From a virus: a stretch of DNA of 64,000 nucleotides. Below the pieces are notes generated by a model. It searched no databases. It was given only the letters and a program-made list of their open reading frames with translations, and was not told the DNA's origin. Location of the stretch: the IMG/VR virus record IMGVR_UViG_3300031419_000012. One strand, 5' to 3'. Of the stretch, positions 993 through 31,945 are shown piece after piece; within the stretch, counting starts at the first letter, position 1, and every line of letters starts with the position of its first letter. The position numbers and the translations under genes are program-made.

Positions 993-2072
993 ATGCCTAA
1001 CTTCAGCGACCTAGAATTTGAAAAGCGCTATAAACATTTTCTGCAGGTGCAGCAGGACTGGCTGACTCTCATTACGGACAACAAATTCTTTTCTGATACT
1101 AACGCCGTTGGTGAAGAATGCCGTCCGGCTGGCCTTCTTACTGACTCAGCACAGTTTCAGCATGCTCAGCACCTGCTGGCTGAATGGCAGAGTTTTGCCG
1201 AACTGGCAGAAGAAAAGCGTAAAGAGCGCAGTATCGCCATAACCACGAACCTTTATCTGCCGGTTCCTGTACTGCTGATTAACCCTGCATACGTTCAGAT
1301 TGACCGCTTCCGCGCCACGGCGACCGCTAACCATAAGCGTGAAGATATCCTGATGCGCTATGAAAAGCAGATCAGCAAACTCAAGAAGATTACCCACGCG
1401 TTTGGCGCAATCATGACGCTGGAAGATGAACGTAAATACTTTGAGGCCGCGCCGGTTGCTACTGTGTATCGCGCCCGTACCAGCACCTATACAGATATTC
1501 AGGTGAGCGTGCGTCATACTACAGATCAGCATGAGGTTGATAAGTTCCGCTACGGCGCACACGGTATGCTTATCATCGGTGACGATCTGGCGCTGGGGCG
1601 CAACGTCAAACTCAACGTGAGCGTGACGAACACCAAAAGCTCCCTGTATGACTTTATTCAGCCTGTCCCGTGCTCCGTTCTGCCGTCAGCACAGGTCTAT
1701 ACCCTTGATGATGTTGAACTGGGTAAGAAGATGGTTTCACAGCGTGCATCGGTTGCTTACGCCGTTAAACAGCGTCGCTACCAGTTTGATAAGCGCGCTA
1801 AGGAAAAGATGGCGCGGGCGAAAGACCCTGTTGAGGCGCGTGCTATCAGTCTGGAAATTGAAGCCGGACGCGAAGTGCTGGAACTGATGGACGCTCACGA
1901 TTATGAACTGCTCGACAGGAAATTAGCCGCCGGGGATGAATCACAGCTTACCATGCTGCAGATCCGCGAACGTTACGGCAATGAATCCGACCGTACCGGG
2001 AAAAATATCCGCAACATGCCGGATTTCCTCGCCAAACTGATTGCCAAAGAAGAGAAAAAGGGCAGTAAGTAA
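993..2072 (+). CDS. c1: C1-like primary repressor
   Basis: Segments NLYLPVPVLL and KSSLYDFIQPVPCSVLPSAQVYTLDDVELGKK resemble recalled P1 C1 (ILYPVPNIL; KFSLYDSIEPIICDRWPQAKIYRLADIENVKK). Convergent with pacB as in P1. Confidence 0.8.
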   Translation: MPNFSDLEFEKRYKHFLQVQQDWLTLITDNKFFSDTNAVGEECRPAGLLTDSAQFQHAQHLLAEWQSFAELAEEKRKERSIAITTNLYLPVPVLLINPAYVQIDRFRATATANHKREDILMRYEKQISKLKKITHAFGAIMTLEDERKYFEAAPVATVYRARTSTYTDIQVSVRHTTDQHEVDKFRYGAHGMLIIGDDLALGRNVKLNVSVTNTKSSLYDFIQPVPCSVLPSAQVYTLDDVELGKKMVSQRASVAYAVKQRRYQFDKRAKEKMARAKDPVEARAISLEIEAGREVLELMDAHDYELLDRKLAAGDESQLTMLQIRERYGNESDRTGKNIRNMPDFLAKLIAKEEKKGSK

Positions 2073-7609: not shown

Positions 7610-8008
7610 TCAGCGATAGCTTTTCAAGAGGTGGCTGACCGTATTCGACCAGTTAGTTACGGTGTCACGGGCTAAGCGGTGCACAACCTGGCTGTAAATA
7701 TTAACCGGTAACGGTTCCCCGGCTTCATCCTCAAACACTAACCCTTCCGTCGTTCCTGCTTTACTCATATTCACGCTGTAATCAAACTTGCCTGTTGCCC
7801 CATACATGCCTACCTGCTGCTGAGCCTGCCATGTGAAGCGCACGCCACAACCTTTCCTGAGCTCAAACACAACGGTTCCTTCCACCAGCATGGCTGACTG
7901 CTTCTCACCTGTAGGCAATGACTTATTGCGGCACGACACCGATGTGACCTTGCAGTGATCTGCGCGCCAGCCCAGTAATTCCAGTCCTTTGAGCTTTACC
8001 GTTTCCAT
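7610..8008 (-). CDS. Hypothetical phage protein
   Basis: 132 aa ORF translationally coupled to the upstream gene; no recognised motif. Confidence 0.65.
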   Translation of the reverse strand: METVKLKGLELLGWRADHCKVTSVSCRNKSLPTGEKQSAMLVEGTVVFELRKGCGVRFTWQAQQQVGMYGATGKFDYSVNMSKAGTTEGLVFEDEAGEPLPVNIYSQVVHRLARDTVTNWSNTVSHLLKSYR

Positions 8009-8268
8009 TAAATCAGTCTCCAGTCGCTTGCCAGCAGGTCAGCGGTTACGGGTGTCCAGTCAGCCGTAGTCAGCTGCTCGGTATTAGTCAGTACAAACTG
8101 CGGCATACGCGTGACGGATGCCTGCGGATCGTGGTCAAAAAATCGCGCCGGCACGCCGTACATATCGGTGCCGTTCAGTGGGTGGCGTGTGGTGCCTCTG
8201 TTAAGGCGCAGATGCATACTCTCCCCATGCTTTACGCGCCACTTTAGCGCCGTCAGAGAGCCACACAT
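8008..8268 (-). CDS. Small protein with DUF2829/Tad2-like C-terminal motif
   Basis: Ends WTPVTADLLASDWRLI (W-x-P-x3-D-L-L-A-x-D-W). Start uncertain (8268 or 8217). Confidence 0.55.
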   Translation of the reverse strand: MCGSLTALKWRVKHGESMHLRLNRGTTRHPLNGTDMYGVPARFFDHDPQASVTRMPQFVLTNTEQLTTADWTPVTADLLASDWRLI

Positions 8269-8584
8269 GCGCCACGGCCATAGGTGCGCCCTCTTCTCTG
8301 AACCTCAGCATGCCTTCATCAATCAGCTGCTCGCTGCGCAGGATCAAATCGTTGAGTTTGAGCATGGCCAGACAGGTAGCGTGATTAAGCGACTCCCCGC
8401 GGGCGGTCATCGTCAGTGCGCCTTTGCTTACCGTGGCGGACCAGTCTGCAGTCATCTGTGACTGCTCCGTGACGACAAAGCCCAGGTACTCGAGAACGTT
8501 CAGCAGCGCCATGTAGTCGCCGGTATAGTTACCCTTTGCACCGGCAATCATGGCAATCGTCTCGTTTATTTGTTGATCGTTCAT
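8201..8584 (-). CDS. Hypothetical phage protein, possibly phage ABA-sandwich fold
   Basis: 127 aa in operon; WSATVS...ARGESLNHATCLAMLK pattern recalls ABA-sandwich domains (weak). Confidence 0.6.
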   Translation of the reverse strand: MNDQQINETIAMIAGAKGNYTGDYMALLNVLEYLGFVVTEQSQMTADWSATVSKGALTMTARGESLNHATCLAMLKLNDLILRSEQLIDEGMLRFREEGAPMAVAHVWLSDGAKVARKAWGEYASAP

Positions 8585-8981: not shown

Positions 8982-9083
8982 TTGTGCTGACCGGATTTGA
9001 ACCGGCGACCTCACGCTTGTCCCTTTCACCGCCCTCCGGGCTGAATAAAAGAGCGAACGCTGCTGCCACTGAGCTACAACACA
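8982..9083 (-). ncRNA. tRNA-like RNA with long hairpin inserted in the anticodon loop
   Basis: Acceptor TGTGTTG/CAGCACA, D-region TAGCTCAGTGGCAGCAGCG, variable loop AGGTC, T-arm GCCGG-TTCAAAT-CCGGT. The anticodon region is ~30 nt too long and contains CTTTTA; no CCA encoded. Confidence 0.8.
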
Positions 9084-9897: not shown

Positions 9898-9981
9898 TGG
9901 CAGTAACGGCTGGATTTGAACCAGCGACCTTCCGTACTCCTGAGTAAAAGCCGGACGCTCGTGCCACTGAGCTACGTCACC
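9898..9981 (-). tRNA. Atypical tRNA-Lys(UUU)-like RNA with insertion 3' of the anticodon
   Basis: Acceptor GGTGACG/CGTTACT plus GCCA, D-arm GCTC-AGTGGCAC-GAGC, T-arm GCTGG-TTCAAAT-CCAGC. Anticodon region reads TCCGG-CTTTTA-CTCAGGAGT-ACGGA; 84 nt. Confidence 0.8.
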
Positions 9982-10692: not shown

Positions 10693-10756
10693 TGGTGCAG
10701 GTTGGCGGAATTGAACCGCCGACAGTGGAACACTCGACCGACTGAGCTAAACCTGC
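10693..10756 (-). ncRNA. tRNA-like RNA lacking the anticodon arm
   Basis: Perfect acceptor GCAGGTT/AACCTGC plus ACCA, D-arm GCTC-AGTCGGTC-GAGT, T-arm GGCGG-TTCAATT-CCGCC. Only 11 nt lie between D- and T-arm (about 23 expected); 64 nt. Confidence 0.85.
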
Positions 10757-11108: not shown

Positions 11109-11169
11109 AATGTACACAATGAGGAGATCTGAATCAATGAAAATCTAAGATATTTCTTAGATTTTCATT
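11109..11169 (-). promoter_or_regulatory. Sigma70 promoter with adjacent perfect palindromic operator
   Basis: TTGATT-17bp-TACATT with extended -10 TG; AATGAAAATCTAAGA-N4-TCTTAGATTTTCATT at 11136-11169 abuts the -35. Confidence 0.7.
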
Positions 11170-11199: not shown

Positions 11200-12489
11200 T
11201 TAGCGACGTTTCAGGTTGCCGTTTTTGATAGGTTCAATATCACCGTTGGTTTTTGCCCAGTTGATGCACCAGCTATTAACTGCCATGCGGATCTCTTCTA
11301 CCGTGGCCTCGCTCAGCCCTTTAACCTTTACCAGTTCCGGCGGTAGCTCACCACCCACCGCTGCCACCGTTTCATACCCGGCCTTAATCAGCGCGTTAAG
11401 CGCACGCGCCGGAATAACCAGCTCAGAGACCGGCGCAGCCTTGCCGTCAATTATGCGCTGATGGAGACGCGGGAAGTCCAGCGCCAGGCGGGTCATGATG
11501 CGTTCATGCAGTTCATCGTTGATGGCCGTGTCCCACATAGGGAGTAAATCAGGCAGGATTCGGAATACCGGATTACCCCATACACCCGGCACGACGTCCA
11601 TTGCCAGCATCATTGCGGTGCGGATCTGATAGTGAAAGTTTGCCGTCTCAATGGACACGTCACGCATGCCGTGAAACACGCTAAGACCGAAGTGGTAATT
11701 GTAGATATAGCAGCCCACGTCGCCGCTGCCGTCCGGCAATGGCAGAAGGAATTGCGCCACATCTTCCTGCCCGTCGTGAAACTCCACGCGCTCTTTGAGA
11801 TTGTTATGCAGGGCAGTCAGTTTAATCAGCTCATTAGCCGTCTCACCGCGCAGGCGGCGCTCTTTACCAACCTCTTTATCTGCAATGTTCAGCTTCTGCT
11901 GCAGCTCAAGTTTCAGCGCGCTCTGTTTTTTACGGTCGGCGCGTAGCTGTGAAATGGTTTTATCGCGCTCCTGCAGATCCAGCGCCAGGCGCTCAGGATT
12001 TTTGCGGCGGTACTGTGCAAACTCATTATTCAGAGTGGTCAGCGCCAGCTGTGCAGTAACCAGCGCGCCTGATGCGCGTTCGTGAGCGTTTTCAGCGTTA
12101 ATAGCGCGGCTGTCAGCCTCAGCAGCGTGCATATTGGCCTGCTGAATAGCTTCGTCGGCGGCGTTCTGCGCATCAAGGCGGATCTGCGTTATCTCCAGGC
12201 TCAGCGCTGAATGGCTGTCCAGCTGCTGCTGTACATGCTCCAGTGCGTCTGCCAGCACGTTATAGGTGTCAGCCTCATGATTAAGGCGCTGCCCGATATC
12301 AATCTGCACCTGCTCCAGCGCGGCCAGGCAGTTATCCAGCAGGCGGTTTTCAAGATCGTCAAGTTTCAGGCGCTTGCGGATAGAGGCCAGCTGGCCGTAA
12401 GCCGCTACAAACGTCTGGTGAAGGACTTCATCGTCAACGGGGCATTCAGGGAGTTGCTGCAGCTTCTGGAGAAGATTTTGAGATGACAT
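11200..12489 (-). CDS. Coiled-coil protein with C-terminal RNAP-alpha-CTD-like HhH domain (P1 PmgS-like, tentative)
   Basis: Long heptad-rich N-terminal half; C-terminal ELVIPARALNALIKAGYETVAAV...LVKVKGLSEATVEEI matches the alpha-CTD pattern. Confidence 0.7.
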   Translation of the reverse strand: MSSQNLLQKLQQLPECPVDDEVLHQTFVAAYGQLASIRKRLKLDDLENRLLDNCLAALEQVQIDIGQRLNHEADTYNVLADALEHVQQQLDSHSALSLEITQIRLDAQNAADEAIQQANMHAAEADSRAINAENAHERASGALVTAQLALTTLNNEFAQYRRKNPERLALDLQERDKTISQLRADRKKQSALKLELQQKLNIADKEVGKERRLRGETANELIKLTALHNNLKERVEFHDGQEDVAQFLLPLPDGSGDVGCYIYNYHFGLSVFHGMRDVSIETANFHYQIRTAMMLAMDVVPGVWGNPVFRILPDLLPMWDTAINDELHERIMTRLALDFPRLHQRIIDGKAAPVSELVIPARALNALIKAGYETVAAVGGELPPELVKVKGLSEATVEEIRMAVNSWCINWAKTNGDIEPIKNGNLKRR

Positions 12490-12547
12490 AATAGATTTCA
12501 GATCCGCTATAAATTTGCGGCAGATAATAACCTGAAATTGACCACTG

Positions 12548-12565
12548 TCTAAGATTTTTCTTAGA
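12548..12565. promoter_or_regulatory. Palindromic operator overlapping a promoter
   Basis: TCTAAGA-TTTT-TCTTAGA, same core as 11136-11169, overlapping a TAGACA -35-like hexamer on the minus strand. Confidence 0.65.
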
Positions 12566-12629
12566 TTTTATTTATCAAATAAGAAGGACTGATTCGGTGG
12601 CAAAGCAGAGCGCCCTGCCACCAGCAGGA

Positions 12630-12929
12630 TTACATCAGTTTGAGCGCCACCAGCACGCCAGCTACAGCAGCGGCCATCATCAGCATATGCAGCAGCACGG
12701 ACGGCGTTTTAACCTCTCCGCTTTCATACTCTGCCTGCGACATGCGCCCCAGGTAACTGTGCGAGACCAGAACGGCGTTTTCATCAAAGCCCAGCTGCAG
12801 GCGCACGTTCTGCAGTGTCGGGCGCGTGACCTGACGCGAGACAAGCTGTACCACGCCGGATCGCATCTTACCGTTATCGCCCATATAGCAAATTGAATGG
12901 TAGTGAAGCGGTGTATTGCGCCCCATCAC
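12630..12929 (-). CDS. Hypothetical protein with C-terminal hydrophobic segment
   Basis: 99 aa, coupled to the upstream gene. Confidence 0.6.
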   Translation of the reverse strand: MMGRNTPLHYHSICYMGDNGKMRSGVVQLVSRQVTRPTLQNVRLQLGFDENAVLVSHSYLGRMSQAEYESGEVKTPSVLLHMLMMAAAVAGVLVALKLM

Positions 12930-13444
12930 TGAACGGCCACCCAGTCACTAACGCGCATATCATCGACGCTCAGACAGTGAATTTCTTCACCGCCGTCAGG
13001 GCGAGTAAGCCGCAGCACGTCGTCCCCTTCGTGCTCCTGCTCCAGTGACACCACAAACCCCGCTGGCCACCCCTCGCGGCGCATTAAAAGTTCGGGGTTT
13101 TCTTTCATCTTAAGCAACGCCTCACTGTGACAGCACGCTATGGCACCGATTCCAATTTTCCCCAAACCTTCGATCTGTGCCACCGTCATGCGTGCTCGTC
13201 CTTCTGTAAATGATTTTCGTAAGATATAGCTGATACCTTTAACGCCACCGTAGTAGTTCAGCTGGCGATTGTTCATGCCGCATCGCGCCATGAGTTCATT
13301 TTTCGGTACCCCGAACATGCCTGTTTCCAGTGCCAGTTCGGCAAATACTGCAAGCCCCAGCCCTAAGTTGCTGCGCGTCTTTGCGCGTCGCGCATAGTGC
13401 TCAAACGTGGGGCATCCGGAAAAAAAGTCCGCGTCAAAAAGCAC
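12926..13444 (-). CDS. TetR-like HTH fused to a DUF2829/Tad2-like domain
   Basis: ALETGMFGVPKNELMARCGMNNRQLNYYGGVKG (TetR-like HTH) followed by EALLKMKENPELLMRREGW...LSVDDMRVSDWVAV. Confidence 0.6.
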   Translation of the reverse strand: MLFDADFFSGCPTFEHYARRAKTRSNLGLGLAVFAELALETGMFGVPKNELMARCGMNNRQLNYYGGVKGISYILRKSFTEGRARMTVAQIEGLGKIGIGAIACCHSEALLKMKENPELLMRREGWPAGFVVSLEQEHEGDDVLRLTRPDGGEEIHCLSVDDMRVSDWVAVQ

Positions 13445-14035
13445 TTATTCGCTCCAGAATCCGTCATTTTCGTGCGCGGGCATAACTCCGCCTGCTTCGA
13501 GTGCTGCGTACTGCTCTGTCACCCTGATCGTCTCTTCAGGAGAAAATGATAAAAGCACGTAAAAGCCCTGTGCTTTCAGGCGTCGCATCCACTCTATCTG
13601 CTTCTCAGAGGGCATGCGCTTACCGTGCTTTTGCTCTATCCGCATACCGTGATAAACACCGGACGGAATTTCCAGACACATATCAGGAACGCCACGCTTT
13701 GCCCCTTCTGCCTCAATCGCTGCGGCGGTTTTTTTTAAGCGGAATCCTCCGTTCGGTACAGCATAAAGGTGATCGTAGATAACCCTGTCAGCGCGGTAAA
13801 AATGGTCAAAAATACGAACCTGGTCGTAATGCTCTTTTTTGCCTGCCAGCAGGCCGGGATTTTTAACGAGTGCGGCCAGCGCTTTTGCATGAACCGATAC
13901 GTCTGTCAGTGCGGTTAACCAGGCGGACGCTTTGCCGGATTTACCCGACGCGACACCCTCAGCTTTATCTGCTGGTTTACTGCGTGTTTTAGGTTTTTTC
14001 TTGTAGGAGTGAAACCACTCTTCACTGAAGCGCAT
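13445..14035 (-). CDS. VRR-NUC-family nuclease (P1 PmgM-like)
   Basis: YAVPNGG...AEGAKRGVPDM...HGMRIEQK...Q.EWMRRL motifs; start taken at MRFSEE (14035). Confidence 0.8.
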   Translation of the reverse strand: MRFSEEWFHSYKKKPKTRSKPADKAEGVASGKSGKASAWLTALTDVSVHAKALAALVKNPGLLAGKKEHYDQVRIFDHFYRADRVIYDHLYAVPNGGFRLKKTAAAIEAEGAKRGVPDMCLEIPSGVYHGMRIEQKHGKRMPSEKQIEWMRRLKAQGFYVLLSFSPEETIRVTEQYAALEAGGVMPAHENDGFWSE

Positions 14036-14171
14036 ATCCGGAATTGTCAGCCGATGATTAAGTATTCTAAAAGATGGATTTGCGTCGGGGGGTATTTTTA
14101 ACGCTGAGACGGGAAAAAACAAGCCTGTAATCCGCATCTTTCAAAGATAGTGATTACAGGCCTTTATCAGC

Positions 14172-14336
14172 TTACTGGTGCGCCATCCACATCAGCATGA
14201 GGCAGCAGACGATGCCGATCGTACTGAAACAAAGCGTGAGGAATTTCCCAATCATATTAGTAATGGCGGCGGTGTCGCCGGTATTTTTATTGACTGAGGT
14301 GGTATTAACAAAGTCACGCTGTGCAAAAGTTTTCAT
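14172..14336 (-). CDS. Small membrane protein (54 aa, below the ORF-track cutoff)
   Basis: MKTFAQRDFV...FLTLCFSTIGIVCCLMLMWMAHQ with a purine-rich RBS and a C-terminal hydrophobic helix. Confidence 0.45.
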   Translation of the reverse strand: MKTFAQRDFVNTTSVNKNTGDTAAITNMIGKFLTLCFSTIGIVCCLMLMWMAHQ

Positions 14337-14394
14337 GTTATATTCTCTTCGTTATGTGCAGAGATGACGTCGCCAAACACAGTCTCTGCAGGTA

Positions 14395-14428
14395 AAAAAA
14401 AGCCCGGCCATCTGGTCGGGCTTTTTTC
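14395..14428. terminator. Bidirectional terminator
   Basis: A-run, GCCCGGCC-atct-GGTCGGGC, T-run. Confidence 0.65.
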
Positions 14429-14490
14429 ATGCTCACCGCCTTAGCGGATATGCAAAATCTAAGCTGTTTATAGTTTTCAGTCAACAGATA

Positions 14491-25141: not shown

Positions 25142-25400
25142 TTAAAGAAGCGTCACTACAGGAGGTTCCAATCTCCGGGTGGTGACGTTGACAGGGTTGG
25201 AACTACCGGCGCACAAGAAAACCGGCCTACCCGAAGGTAGCCCCACCAACGCCACCATAGATACGCCCGGAATAATCCGGACGTGGTAGCGCCGAAGGCA
25301 CTATGTGCCAGCTCTCATGCTTTTTCAGGGTTCCAATCCCGACCGCTGTTTTGCAGCGGCGCGCACACTATATCCGCCGCGCTGATAAATTCAATATGTC
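25142..25400 (-). promoter_or_regulatory. c4/P4-CI-type antisense attenuator leader with Ash/Icd-like leader peptide
   Basis: GATTGGAACC twice (25329-25338, 25164-25173) with a complementary GTTCCAACCC between (25194-25203). Encodes MVALVGLPSGRPVFLCAGSSNPVNVTT (25142-25258), an Ash-family-like motif. Confidence 0.65.
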
Positions 25401-28379: not shown

Positions 28380-29267
28380 TTAAATTCTCAATGTATCGAT
28401 AACCGCTCTTAGAGCGGGTGACACATTGCGGTGCGGATAATAGATATATGAACCTTCCAGGCGCTGACTGTAGCATTGCAAAACTCTGATCAGCGCCCCC
28501 TGTTCTATATCATCAGAAACTAATTCCTCCGGAACATAAGCCAGTCCCAGGCCTAGCCGGGCTGCTTTGGCTTCCATATAGCTGTCAGCAAAGGCCCATT
28601 GTCCCTGAGGCTGATGGGTTATCTTTTTACCGTCTTGATTGAGTTCCCATGCATACAGGCTGCCGTCTCCAAACTGGTAAGCGATGCAGGGATGAATAAC
28701 TAAATCGGAGGGAGTTTGCGGAAATCCGTAGCGACGAAAGTGCTCGGGCGTGCCGACAACGGCCATCTCCATATCGGGCGAAATGCGCACAGCGACCATA
28801 CCGCTACCTACTTCCGAGCCCAGACGTATACCGGCATCGAAGCGCTCAGCAATAATATCGACAAACCGGCTTTCGCTGATGAGCTCCAGCCGAATATCTG
28901 GGTAGCGTTGTTTAAACACCGCCAGCTTCGGCAGCAGCACTTTATCAATGGCGTGCTGACTGGCATTAATACGGACCGTACCCGATGGGGTATGGCGATA
29001 ATGGGCCAGCGTGGCAAGCCCCATATCTAAAGCGTCAAATCCAGATTCGACGGTTCGATAGAGCAACTCGCCGGCATGGGTGAGCGATAACTTGCGCGTG
29101 GTACGCACCAGAAGCTGCACGCCCAGTCGTTCTTCCAGCTCGCGCACTGCACGACTAATTCCTGACTGCGCCAGGCCAAGCCTCTGCGCGGCGGCAGTAA
29201 AACTCCCTTCTCGCACGACCTGCATAAACAGATAGAGATCGTTATAGTTTTCCCGTTTCGCCATCAT
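28380..29267 (-). CDS. LysR-family transcriptional regulator
   Basis: N-terminal GSFTAAAQRLGLAQSGISRAVRELEERLGVQLLVRTTR; divergent from the hydrolase. Confidence 0.95.
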   Translation of the reverse strand: MMAKRENYNDLYLFMQVVREGSFTAAAQRLGLAQSGISRAVRELEERLGVQLLVRTTRKLSLTHAGELLYRTVESGFDALDMGLATLAHYRHTPSGTVRINASQHAIDKVLLPKLAVFKQRYPDIRLELISESRFVDIIAERFDAGIRLGSEVGSGMVAVRISPDMEMAVVGTPEHFRRYGFPQTPSDLVIHPCIAYQFGDGSLYAWELNQDGKKITHQPQGQWAFADSYMEAKAARLGLGLAYVPEELVSDDIEQGALIRVLQCYSQRLEGSYIYYPHRNVSPALRAVIDTLRI

Positions 29268-29437
29268 CCTTCCCATGCTGCCGCATCACAATTCAGAACA
29301 ATATGTTATCAATCTTAGCATTTTTCACCCTCTAATCAGTACTATTTCTGCTAACTATAATGTGCGCATTGCAACAAAGCACAGCAGCGTTGTCCGTAGG
29401 AAACCTGTTTCTGGCACGTTTTATGAAGGGGATTTTG

Positions 29438-30574
29438 ATGACTGCTTTCACCCAAAAATTGACAACTGCGATACCCGCCCTGTTGTTATGCGCATCATTA
29501 AGTGGAGTCACAAATATGAGTTACGCTGATACAGCCAATCCGAACGCGCCCGTTTCGCTGGTCGAGAAATGGGATAAAACTTTTGCTGAGAGCACGAAAG
29601 TTGATCACCGTAAGGTGACCTTTCCGAACCGATACGGGATCACCTTAGTCGGGGATCTCTACATCCCGAAGGATCGTGGGGATCGCAAGCTGGCAGCTAT
29701 TGCTGTTAGCGGCCCCTTCGGGGCGGTGAAAGAGCAATCCAGCGGCCTGTATGCGCAGACGCTGGCTGAACAGGGATTTGTCACTCTGGCTTTCGACCCT
29801 TCATACACGGGCGAAAGCGGCGGCTACCCGCGCAACGTCGCATCTCCGGATATCAACACCGAGGATTTCAGCGCGGCGGTTGATTTCTTAGGCCTGCAAA
29901 AAGAGGTGGATCGCAACCGTATCGGGCTGCTCGGTATCTGCGGATGGGGCGGCATGGCCTTAAACGACGCCGCGATGGACACGCGTGTCAAGGCGGTGGC
30001 GACCAGCGTGATGTATGACATGAGCCGTGCGATGGGGCATGGCGTGGGCGATGGCAAAGACCGCTATACCACTGCCGATCGTCGTGCCGTATTGCAGTAT
30101 CTGAACAAGCAGCGCTGGAAGGATGCGGAAAATGGCGCTTTCGCGCCAGGCGGGCATGACATTTATGTTGATGAGAAGGGCAACGTCACCGCTTCCGATC
30201 GTATTCTGCCGGAAACTCTGCCCGCGAATCCTAACCCAGTATTGAAAGAGTTCTTTGATTATTACCGCATGCCGCGTGGTTTCCATGAGCGTTCGGTCAA
30301 CTCAACCGGTGCCTGGAATGCAACCATGCCGCTGTCATTTATGAATATGCCGCTGCTGAGTTACGCCAATGAAGTTACTATCCCTACACTCATCGTGACC
30401 GGCGAAAAAGCCCATTCACGCTATTTTGCTGAAGATGCCTTTAAGGCAATCGGCAGCAAAGAGAAAGAGTTAGTGATTGTCCCTGGGGCAAACCATGTTG
30501 ATCTGTACGACAACGTTGCGGGTAAGATCCCATTTGCCAAATTTGAGCAATTTTTCAAAGCAAACTTAAGGTAA
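29438..30574 (+). CDS. Alpha/beta-fold hydrolase with signal peptide (YcjY/COG1073-like)
   Basis: GICGWGG nucleophile elbow, HVDLYD catalytic His, N-terminal signal-like segment; start ATG 29438. Confidence 0.9.
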   Translation: MTAFTQKLTTAIPALLLCASLSGVTNMSYADTANPNAPVSLVEKWDKTFAESTKVDHRKVTFPNRYGITLVGDLYIPKDRGDRKLAAIAVSGPFGAVKEQSSGLYAQTLAEQGFVTLAFDPSYTGESGGYPRNVASPDINTEDFSAAVDFLGLQKEVDRNRIGLLGICGWGGMALNDAAMDTRVKAVATSVMYDMSRAMGHGVGDGKDRYTTADRRAVLQYLNKQRWKDAENGAFAPGGHDIYVDEKGNVTASDRILPETLPANPNPVLKEFFDYYRMPRGFHERSVNSTGAWNATMPLSFMNMPLLSYANEVTIPTLIVTGEKAHSRYFAEDAFKAIGSKEKELVIVPGANHVDLYDNVAGKIPFAKFEQFFKANLR

Positions 30575-30742
30575 CCCGAAAGGTTTACCAGGCCACCTGT
30601 CATAAACGGGTGGCTTTTACCTGCCTGGTGTGACGCAGAATATGTCACATCGCCCCATATTCTCACCCACCTATTATGTCGTTATTCCCTGAATAACTTC
30701 TGACCCGACTGCGCCTGAATCTGGCTGGTTCGATATTAAGGG

Positions 30743-31945
30743 ATGCTAATAATGTCTACTGTAAGTCTAAAACCATCATACGAAAAAAAGCATGCATACT
30801 GGAGCGGCGTATTTGCCATGACGCTTTGCGTGTTTGTGCTGATCGCTTCTGAGTTTATGCCAGTCAGCCTGCTTACGCTCATTGCCCGCGATTTGCACGT
30901 TACCGAAGGGTTGGCAGGGCAAGGAATTGCCGTCTCTGGCGCACTGGCAGTGCTGACCAGTCTGACTATCTCCCATATTGCCGGAGACCTGAATCGTAAA
31001 TATCTTCTGCTTGGGCTAACGGTCTTAATGGCCATATCAGGGTTAGTTATCACCATGGCGCCTGACTATCCGATTTATATGCTGGGGAGGGCTCTGATTG
31101 GCGTCGTCATCGGAGGGTTCTGGTCAATGTCGGCTGCAACCGCCATTCGGCTCGTGCCACAGCACCAGGTTCCCCGCGCACTGGCAATTTTTAACGGCGG
31201 TAACGCGCTGGCCACCGTTGTGGCTGCGCCGCTTGGTAGTTATCTGGGGACAACGGTCGGTTGGCGTGGGGCCTTTTTATGTCTCGTCCCTCTTGCGATA
31301 GCTGCGTTCTTCTGGCAATGGTTCAGCCTGCCTTCAATGGAAAGCGATAAAACACAAAAACCACAGGGGTCTGTGCTTCGTCTGTTCAGCGTTGCCATCG
31401 TACCAACGGGAATGCTTGCCTGCGGGCTCTTCTTTATGGGACAGTTTGCTTTGTTTACCTACGTGCGCCCCTTTCTGGAGAGCGTCACCAGAGTGGGACC
31501 TTCTAACCTTTCTCTGATTTTGCTTGCAATAGGCATAGCAGGTTTTGTCGGCACAATGATCGTCTCAACATTCCTGAACGCCAAATTTTACAAGACCTTA
31601 ATCATGATCCCGTTGCTTATGGCCGCGATTACTGGTGCGTTACTGCTGGTCGGACACCACATCTGGGCCGTTGCCGTATTATTAAGCCTGTGGGGGCTAC
31701 TTGCGACGGCTGCGCCAACAGGATGGTGGACATGGATAGCACGAGCGTTACCCGAAGATGCAGAGAGGGGTGGTGGCCTCATGGTTGCGGTGATCCAGCT
31801 ATCGATTGCGCTTGGTTCAACGGCTGGAGGTCTGGCATTCGACAGTCTGGGATGGAGAAGTGCATTTGGTTTAAGTGGTTTGTTACTACTGGGGGCGGTA
31901 GTGATGACATATGCAACATCCCGTCAAAATAGGAAGGTACACTAA
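30743..31945 (+). CDS. MFS transporter (NepI/DHA1-like)
   Basis: About 12 hydrophobic helices; ASEFMPVSLL and LGRALIG motifs. Confidence 0.93.
   Translation: MLIMSTVSLKPSYEKKHAYWSGVFAMTLCVFVLIASEFMPVSLLTLIARDLHVTEGLAGQGIAVSGALAVLTSLTISHIAGDLNRKYLLLGLTVLMAISGLVITMAPDYPIYMLGRALIGVVIGGFWSMSAATAIRLVPQHQVPRALAIFNGGNALATVVAAPLGSYLGTTVGWRGAFLCLVPLAIAAFFWQWFSLPSMESDKTQKPQGSVLRLFSVAIVPTGMLACGLFFMGQFALFTYVRPFLESVTRVGPSNLSLILLAIGIAGFVGTMIVSTFLNAKFYKTLIMIPLLMAAITGALLLVGHHIWAVAVLLSLWGLLATAAPTGWWTWIARALPEDAERGGGLMVAVIQLSIALGSTAGGLAFDSLGWRSAFGLSGLLLLGAVVMTYATSRQNRKVH

Follow-up and report, generated by a model that had tools for sequence, protein, structure and literature searches.

A Tad2-fold domain joined to a likely TetR-type helix-turn-helix domain in a probable phage gene regulator

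What does a phage protein do when it combines the fold of an immune-signal sponge with a DNA-binding domain: regulate genes, sense host alarm molecules, or sequester them? The question is raised by a gene at positions 12926-13444 (minus strand) of the IMG/VR record IMGVR_UViG_3300031419_000012, analyzed here as a single stretch of 64,000 nucleotides (the window). The characterized Tad2 proteins in the literature surveyed are passive sponges, whereas this protein has a DNA-binding domain attached to the Tad2 fold. Reported Tad2 fusions are to other sponges (Acb4, Sequestin) (10.1101/2025.07.12.664507), and a 2026 review of sponges leaves a helix-turn-helix (HTH) or transcriptional role for them unmentioned (PMC13712596). 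No HTH-Tad2 fusion was found in the literature, in which subscription journals were thinly covered. The protein is a combination of two known parts that is set outside Tad2 by its pocket and outside the TetR family by its C-terminal domain, and its role is probably in the regulation of phage genes.

The 172-amino-acid open reading frame is a genuine gene, translationally coupled and under purifying selection. It is intact, its GTG start comes immediately after the stop codon of a VRR-NUC gene, and its own stop codon overlaps the start of the next gene (Table 1). The sequence is present in contigs from three studies, one or two of which could be the source DNA itself. The full-length fused homologues, found in 23 viral contigs, 6 plasmids, and 4 genomes, make up a small family (9 clusters at 90% identity, 2 at 50%), with both halves and the same slot found in every full-length member examined. 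The dN/dS ratio lies between 0.05 and 0.21 in the N-terminal domain and between 0.10 and 0.40 in the C-terminal one, and column identity within the family is 79% in the HTH versus 58% in the Tad2 part. The closest relatives are Pantoea elements of 87-95 kb (94% for Candidatus Pantoea borealis); fused relatives at greater distance come from Enterobacter and Atlantibacter. The relatives point to a Pantoea-type host for the window. Two sets of candidate relatives were set aside: stand-alone 87-aa forms (P0011 and P0012), whose starts fall close to contig ends and which are probably truncated, and the 98-aa cluster members, which represent the neighboring pmgR-like gene.

Table 1. Positions in the window of the two domains of the fusion protein and of the genes, RNA, and sequence elements discussed in the text.
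Feature	Position	Strand	Basis
TetR-type HTH domain (likely class), residues 19-99 of the fusion protein	13148..13390	-	model, fold search, alignment
Stripped Tad2-fold domain, residues 103-172 of the fusion protein	12929..13138	-	Pfam, profile, VIA, alignment
VRR-NUC protein, P1/D6 pmgM homologue, coupled, upstream	13445..14137	-	
pmgR-like small protein, coupled, downstream	12630..12929	-	
pmgS-like gene	11200..12489	-	
54-aa conserved gene, first of putative operon	14172..14336	-	conservation
Promoter-like site before the 54-aa gene	14484-14456	-	
Terminator-like hairpin before the 54-aa gene	near 14400-14427		
Palindrome TCTAAGA-N4-TCTTAGA, overlapping the -35 box of the pmgS promoter-like site	12545..12568		
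Second palindrome copy, perfect, just after pmgS	11141..11164		
C4 antisense RNA (RF01695, 84 bits)	25175..25262	-	
83-aa stand-alone stripped Tad2 paralogue, directly behind C4	24874..25125	-	module profile, E 1.7e-12

The DNA-binding half is recognized by its fold. An AlphaFold2 model of the full fusion protein, for which 16 sequences were used, has high confidence (pLDDT 85.9, pTM 0.61) and places helices at residues 21-41, 48-55, 59-64, and 67-85, which is the TetR layout. In a wide structure search, TetR-family proteins matching residues 19-99 fill VIA ranks 3-50 (Z 8.6-6.7), and Foldseek matches the N-terminal domain to NalC (probability 0.98, E 0.11). Residues K48, R60, L62, Y64, G66, G67, and K69 of the HTH are invariant, as are the basic and aromatic residues of the recognition helix, and residues 1-101 carry a net charge of +5 to +10 across members. 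At the sequence level, PF00440 (TetR_N) gave no match in 10 members at E values up to 1, a PDB profile search with the N-terminal domain returned no TetR protein, and, out of 1.84 billion representatives, the N-terminal profile recovered only two clusters, each a fusion. The HTH assignment is firm. Its TetR-type class is likely, given the uniformity of the matches, the way the helices are spaced, and the invariance of K48, R60, Y64, and K69, and is graded no higher because Z scores of this size are middling for helical domains and come without a sequence match. Weak matches to the SelB winged helix, MarR, and ArsR were taken as support for some kind of HTH only.

Like members of the TetR family (KstR 5UA2, TtgR 7K1A, NalD 5DAJ, NalC 8KE8), the fusion protein has a three-helix HTH and a long alpha4, with the HTH at the N-terminus and a conserved Gly-x-Lys after the recognition helix. 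It differs from them in its low identity (7-22%, with no PF00440 match), in two additional short N-terminal helices, and in the Tad2 alpha/beta module that stands in place of the all-helical ligand and dimer domain. The initial annotation, which was made from motif patterns, had proposed a TetR-like HTH followed by a Tad2/DUF2829-like domain. The first of these is borne out by the confident model and the VIA and Foldseek matches, as a matter of fold without a sequence match.

The second is likewise recovered, so that domain assignment by AlphaFold model and fold searches returns both domains. All 10 members searched match the Pfam Tad2-like family (PF11195/DUF2829; best E 2.3e-9), with the window protein by itself giving an E value of 0.025, below the cut-off. 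The top five matches of the PDB profile search are all Tad2, VIA superposes 68 residues of the 103-172 segment on ModTad2 (Z 10.7) and HgmTad2 (Z 10.5) with an rmsd of 2.1-2.2 Å, and Foldseek also ranks Tad2 first for this domain. The modeled domain consists of alpha1, a five-strand sheet, and a short C-terminal helix, and the same alpha1 plus five-strand fold is seen in the Tad2 sponges SPO1 gp34.65 (8SME/F/G), ModTad2 (9EIB, 8V3E), and HgmTad2/AcrIIA7 (8KBI-M). In common with these sponges, the fusion protein is phage-encoded and has the equivalents of SPO1 W25, S76, and D79 and a terminal DW motif.

The similarity does not extend to the whole pocket. In SPO1 Tad2, gcADPR is held by W25, N26, W73, and D79 with assistance from T78 and S76 (10.1101/2023.05.01.538930). 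In HgmTad2, the substitutions W21A/N22A and S90A/T92A/D93A markedly reduce gcADPR binding, and cyclic dinucleotides occupy a separate insertion of 35-41 residues (10.1101/2023.11.15.567273). The corresponding residues of 16 fused members were mapped by profile and sequence alignment, not by pocket geometry. The family retains W126, S159, and D162 (SPO1 W25, S76, and D79), whereas N26, W73, and T78 are each absent from all 16. Position 127, equivalent to N26, is occupied by P, E, K, S, Q, or A, the W73 position by H or Y, and the T78 position by variable residues, with one member having Ser as in ModTad2. The alignment test discriminates, because in the canonical Tad2 protein D6 orf114, which matches ModTad2 at E 2e-20, the complete motif is retained, WNG and W73 included.

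The beta2-beta3 insertion of the sponges is also absent from the fusion protein, where a hairpin (beta131-138/beta141-147) leaves about 8 residues in its place. Both the cyclic dinucleotide site and the SPO1 dimer helix alpha2 are gone, because they lie in the lost insertion; Tad2 sponges are homotetramers (dimers of dimers). Since the insertion and half of the pocket are missing, CBASS sensing by the fusion protein appears unlikely and canonical gcADPR binding doubtful. The Tad2 fold stands, the set of gcADPR-pocket residues is incomplete by alignment, and the sensing of gcADPR or cyclic dinucleotides that had been attributed to this protein is disfavored by the loss of three of the six gcADPR-pocket residues and of the dinucleotide insertion.

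Judged by its gene content, the window is a D6/P1-like phage-plasmid. The gene order darB, ulx, pmgM-like VRR-NUC, fusion gene, pmgR-like, pmgS, tRNAs, lpa, partition gene, and terminase (pac) genes is that of D6, and a C4 RNA is present as in D6/P1-like phage-plasmids. In P1, the pmg genes are annotated with putative morphogenetic functions. The anti-restriction genes ulx and darB lie 1.3 kb from the fusion gene. A further proposal of the initial annotation, that the protein could control counter-defense genes, found no support: no such cluster was identified, the downstream genes are pmgR- and pmgS-like, and the nearby palindrome is family-wide. Ahead of the 54-aa gene, a conserved leader (14337-14484, minus strand) contains a promoter-like site, a strong terminator-like hairpin, and a second hairpin with a conserved loop, an arrangement that suggests possible attenuation or antitermination of the fusion-gene operon. 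Neither Rfam nor a search for complementarity identified the leader as a C4 target. The tRNA cluster after pmgS (minus strand; 8982-9083, 9898-9981, and near 10707-10749) comprises tRNA-Lys(TTT), a second tRNA (Rfam), and a third tRNA-like repeat.

The Tad2-like module also occurs without the HTH. In the pmgM-pmgR slot, a stand-alone stripped Tad2-like gene is found in D6 (orf11 of MF356679.1, 66 aa), Citrobacter (68 aa), and Leclercia (80 aa). The Leclercia protein shares 60% identity with the C-terminal half of the fusion from Atlantibacter, and the Leclercia and Citrobacter copies have lost W25 too. From these comparisons, what stays constant in the slot is the Tad2-like module, and the HTH is confined to certain lineages; the pmgS, VRR-NUC, and ulx trees favor neither a single HTH gain with loss in Leclercia and Citrobacter nor movement of the HTH.

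A second location is provided by the C4 RNA, which has the module right behind it in the window and in 7-8 other records. The arrangement of C4 followed by the 83-aa module is conserved among elements of Pantoea, Enterobacter, and Leclercia. In P1 and D6, icd-ant occupies this point, whereas the window has the module and no icd or antirepressor. In D6, the slot gene lacks the TetR-type HTH and the same module class is instead joined to a Rha-type protein, forming the C-terminal end of orf82 (a Rha/Roi-like antirepressor) behind C4 and icd; a weak match to a 313-aa Rha cluster (TM 0.37) came from a shape search as well. In the 24 modules of the slot and C4 class, W73 is never present (0/24) and N26 is present once (1/24). 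The tree of these short modules lacks resolution and gives no single clade for the slot and C4 copies. The module class is repeatedly attached to switch genes and is fused to two unrelated regulatory proteins.

TetR regulators bind a palindromic operator, often near their own gene, and two palindrome copies flank pmgS, their arms conserved and their four-base spacer variable, as would suit a TetR operator. Against an expectation of about 8, the window contains 17 copies of the core motif WWWTCTAA, many of them close to gene starts, including those of lpa and darB (positions include 888, 7287, 7539, 11141, 12568, 14063, 14455, 22158, 38998, 56444, and 60329). It is also found at matching sites in D6, Citrobacter, and Leclercia, all of which lack the HTH. 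The palindrome was set aside as the operator of the TetR-type HTH, its core being recurrent in the window and present in HTH-less phages. In P1, C1 operators precede pmgR and lpa, and the palindrome is probably the operator of a C1-type main repressor; so assigned, it is not the target of the HTH, for which no specific operator was found. A 359-aa open reading frame beside the terminase genes (993-2072, plus strand) has no Pfam match and is preceded by two operator-like motif copies, and its position suggests a C1-type repressor.

The preferred reading, held tentatively and at somewhat less than an even chance, is that the fusion protein is a phage-plasmid regulator in which a stripped Tad2 pairing module replaces the TetR ligand and dimer domain, and that it is tied to the lysis-lysogeny circuit. 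The module would pair protomers, probably along helix alpha1 since the SPO1-type alpha2 dimer helix is missing, and the paired protomers would place two HTHs on a phage operator. More speculatively, lifting of antisense control would allow the C4-gated stand-alone paralogue to be made, and this paralogue could enter fusion oligomers via the shared fold and alter DNA binding. The module would then act as a protein-pairing element of a lysis-lysogeny or early-to-late circuit and not as an immune-signal sink. Both folds, the conserved recognition helix, the pocket losses, and the occurrence of the module in switch genes favor a regulator. Weighing against it are the failure to find an operator, the middling Z scores of the TetR call without sequence support, and the absence of the HTH from the slot in D6, Citrobacter, and Leclercia, so that the module works without an HTH there. 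The conserved W126, S159, and D162 would also suit a retained pocket, though they may be structural.

A retained pocket is central to a different explanation, in which the remodeled site binds a host ADPR-type signal (not CBASS dinucleotides) and allosterically alters DNA binding, with the consequence that the phage-plasmid would respond to activation of host immunity by tuning its switch or early genes. TetR proteins carry a ligand domain at the position taken here by the Tad2 module, which itself has a clear fold (Z 10.7), keeps the W25, S76, and D79 equivalents, and recurs in switch genes. Tad2 homologues have diverged to His-ADPR, cUMP/cCMP, and N7-cADPR ligands, and of 84 sponges tested 19 failed to block any known system, which makes other, unknown ligands conceivable (10.1101/2025.08.24.671296). 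Ligand-responsive regulation is nonetheless unlikely given that the phosphate-contacting N26 and also W73 are lost, that HgmTad2 pocket mutants bind gcADPR markedly less (10.1101/2023.11.15.567273), that pocket positions differ among close relatives, unlike a single-ligand site, and that the dinucleotide insertion is down to about 8 residues. It is rather unlikely that a sponge domain has turned sensor such that a host nucleotide alarm in the remodeled pocket switches DNA binding and the prophage adjusts lysis-lysogeny with the C4-gated paralogue.

The two halves could also work independently, the C-terminal half as a sponge for another immune signal and the HTH as an autoregulator of the operon, with no ligand coupling. 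Aca proteins regulate anti-CRISPR operons, and HTH autoregulation would parallel them; the Tad2-like part stands alone in the slot of D6, Citrobacter, and Leclercia, and the anti-restriction genes ulx and darB are close by. Tad2 commonly accepts fusions with activity retained (10.1101/2025.07.12.664507). This division of labor is nevertheless improbable, as it faces the same pocket losses (extending to W25 in the Leclercia and Citrobacter slot copies) and self-repression would be expected to limit the sponge dose. Just as improbable is a non-regulatory accessory role in the pmg operon, where the stripped module would mediate protein interactions during phage development and the HTH-like part would bind DNA non-specifically or engage a partner protein, e.g., the coupled VRR-NUC nuclease. 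Such a role would agree with the fixed position, with the coupling to pmgM-like and pmgR-like genes that are putatively morphogenetic in P1, and with the failure to find a specific operator. However, the full TetR-type domain, its invariant recognition helix, and strong purifying selection argue for specific DNA contact, and the paralogue behind C4 points to regulation.

Reuse of the Tad2 fold for gene regulation, as in the preferred reading, would call for caution in designating every PF11195 match as anti-Thoeris, and some family members are already annotated by an anti-Thoeris name. If ligand sensing is true instead, phages sense host immune messengers, of which no report was found. The protein is small and single-chain, and standard binding assays could separate regulation from sensing.

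Further Tad2-like and sponge genes were noted in the window and its relatives. A 2-nt deletion near 8218 splits a third Tad2-like gene in the window (8008-8584, minus strand), which in relatives is 192 aa long and combines an N-terminal domain with a Tad2 domain in which W25, W73, and D79 are retained. The deletion is a real allele because it is shared by contigs of three studies, while the intact form occurs in one. Past the tRNA cluster, Sequestin (PF21825) is fused to an N-terminal domain in Atlantibacter (L026, 12444-12899) and Leclercia (L032, 9668-10144). The canonical Tad2 protein D6 orf114 (L047, MF356679.1 88126-88566) has a 57-residue N-terminal extension and is annotated as hypothetical. 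Elsewhere in the window, positions 28380-31945 contain three cargo genes of bacterial appearance: a LysR-type regulator (28380-29276, minus strand) and an MFS-like transporter (30743-31945, plus strand), both so assigned by sequence pattern, and a 404-aa gene between them.
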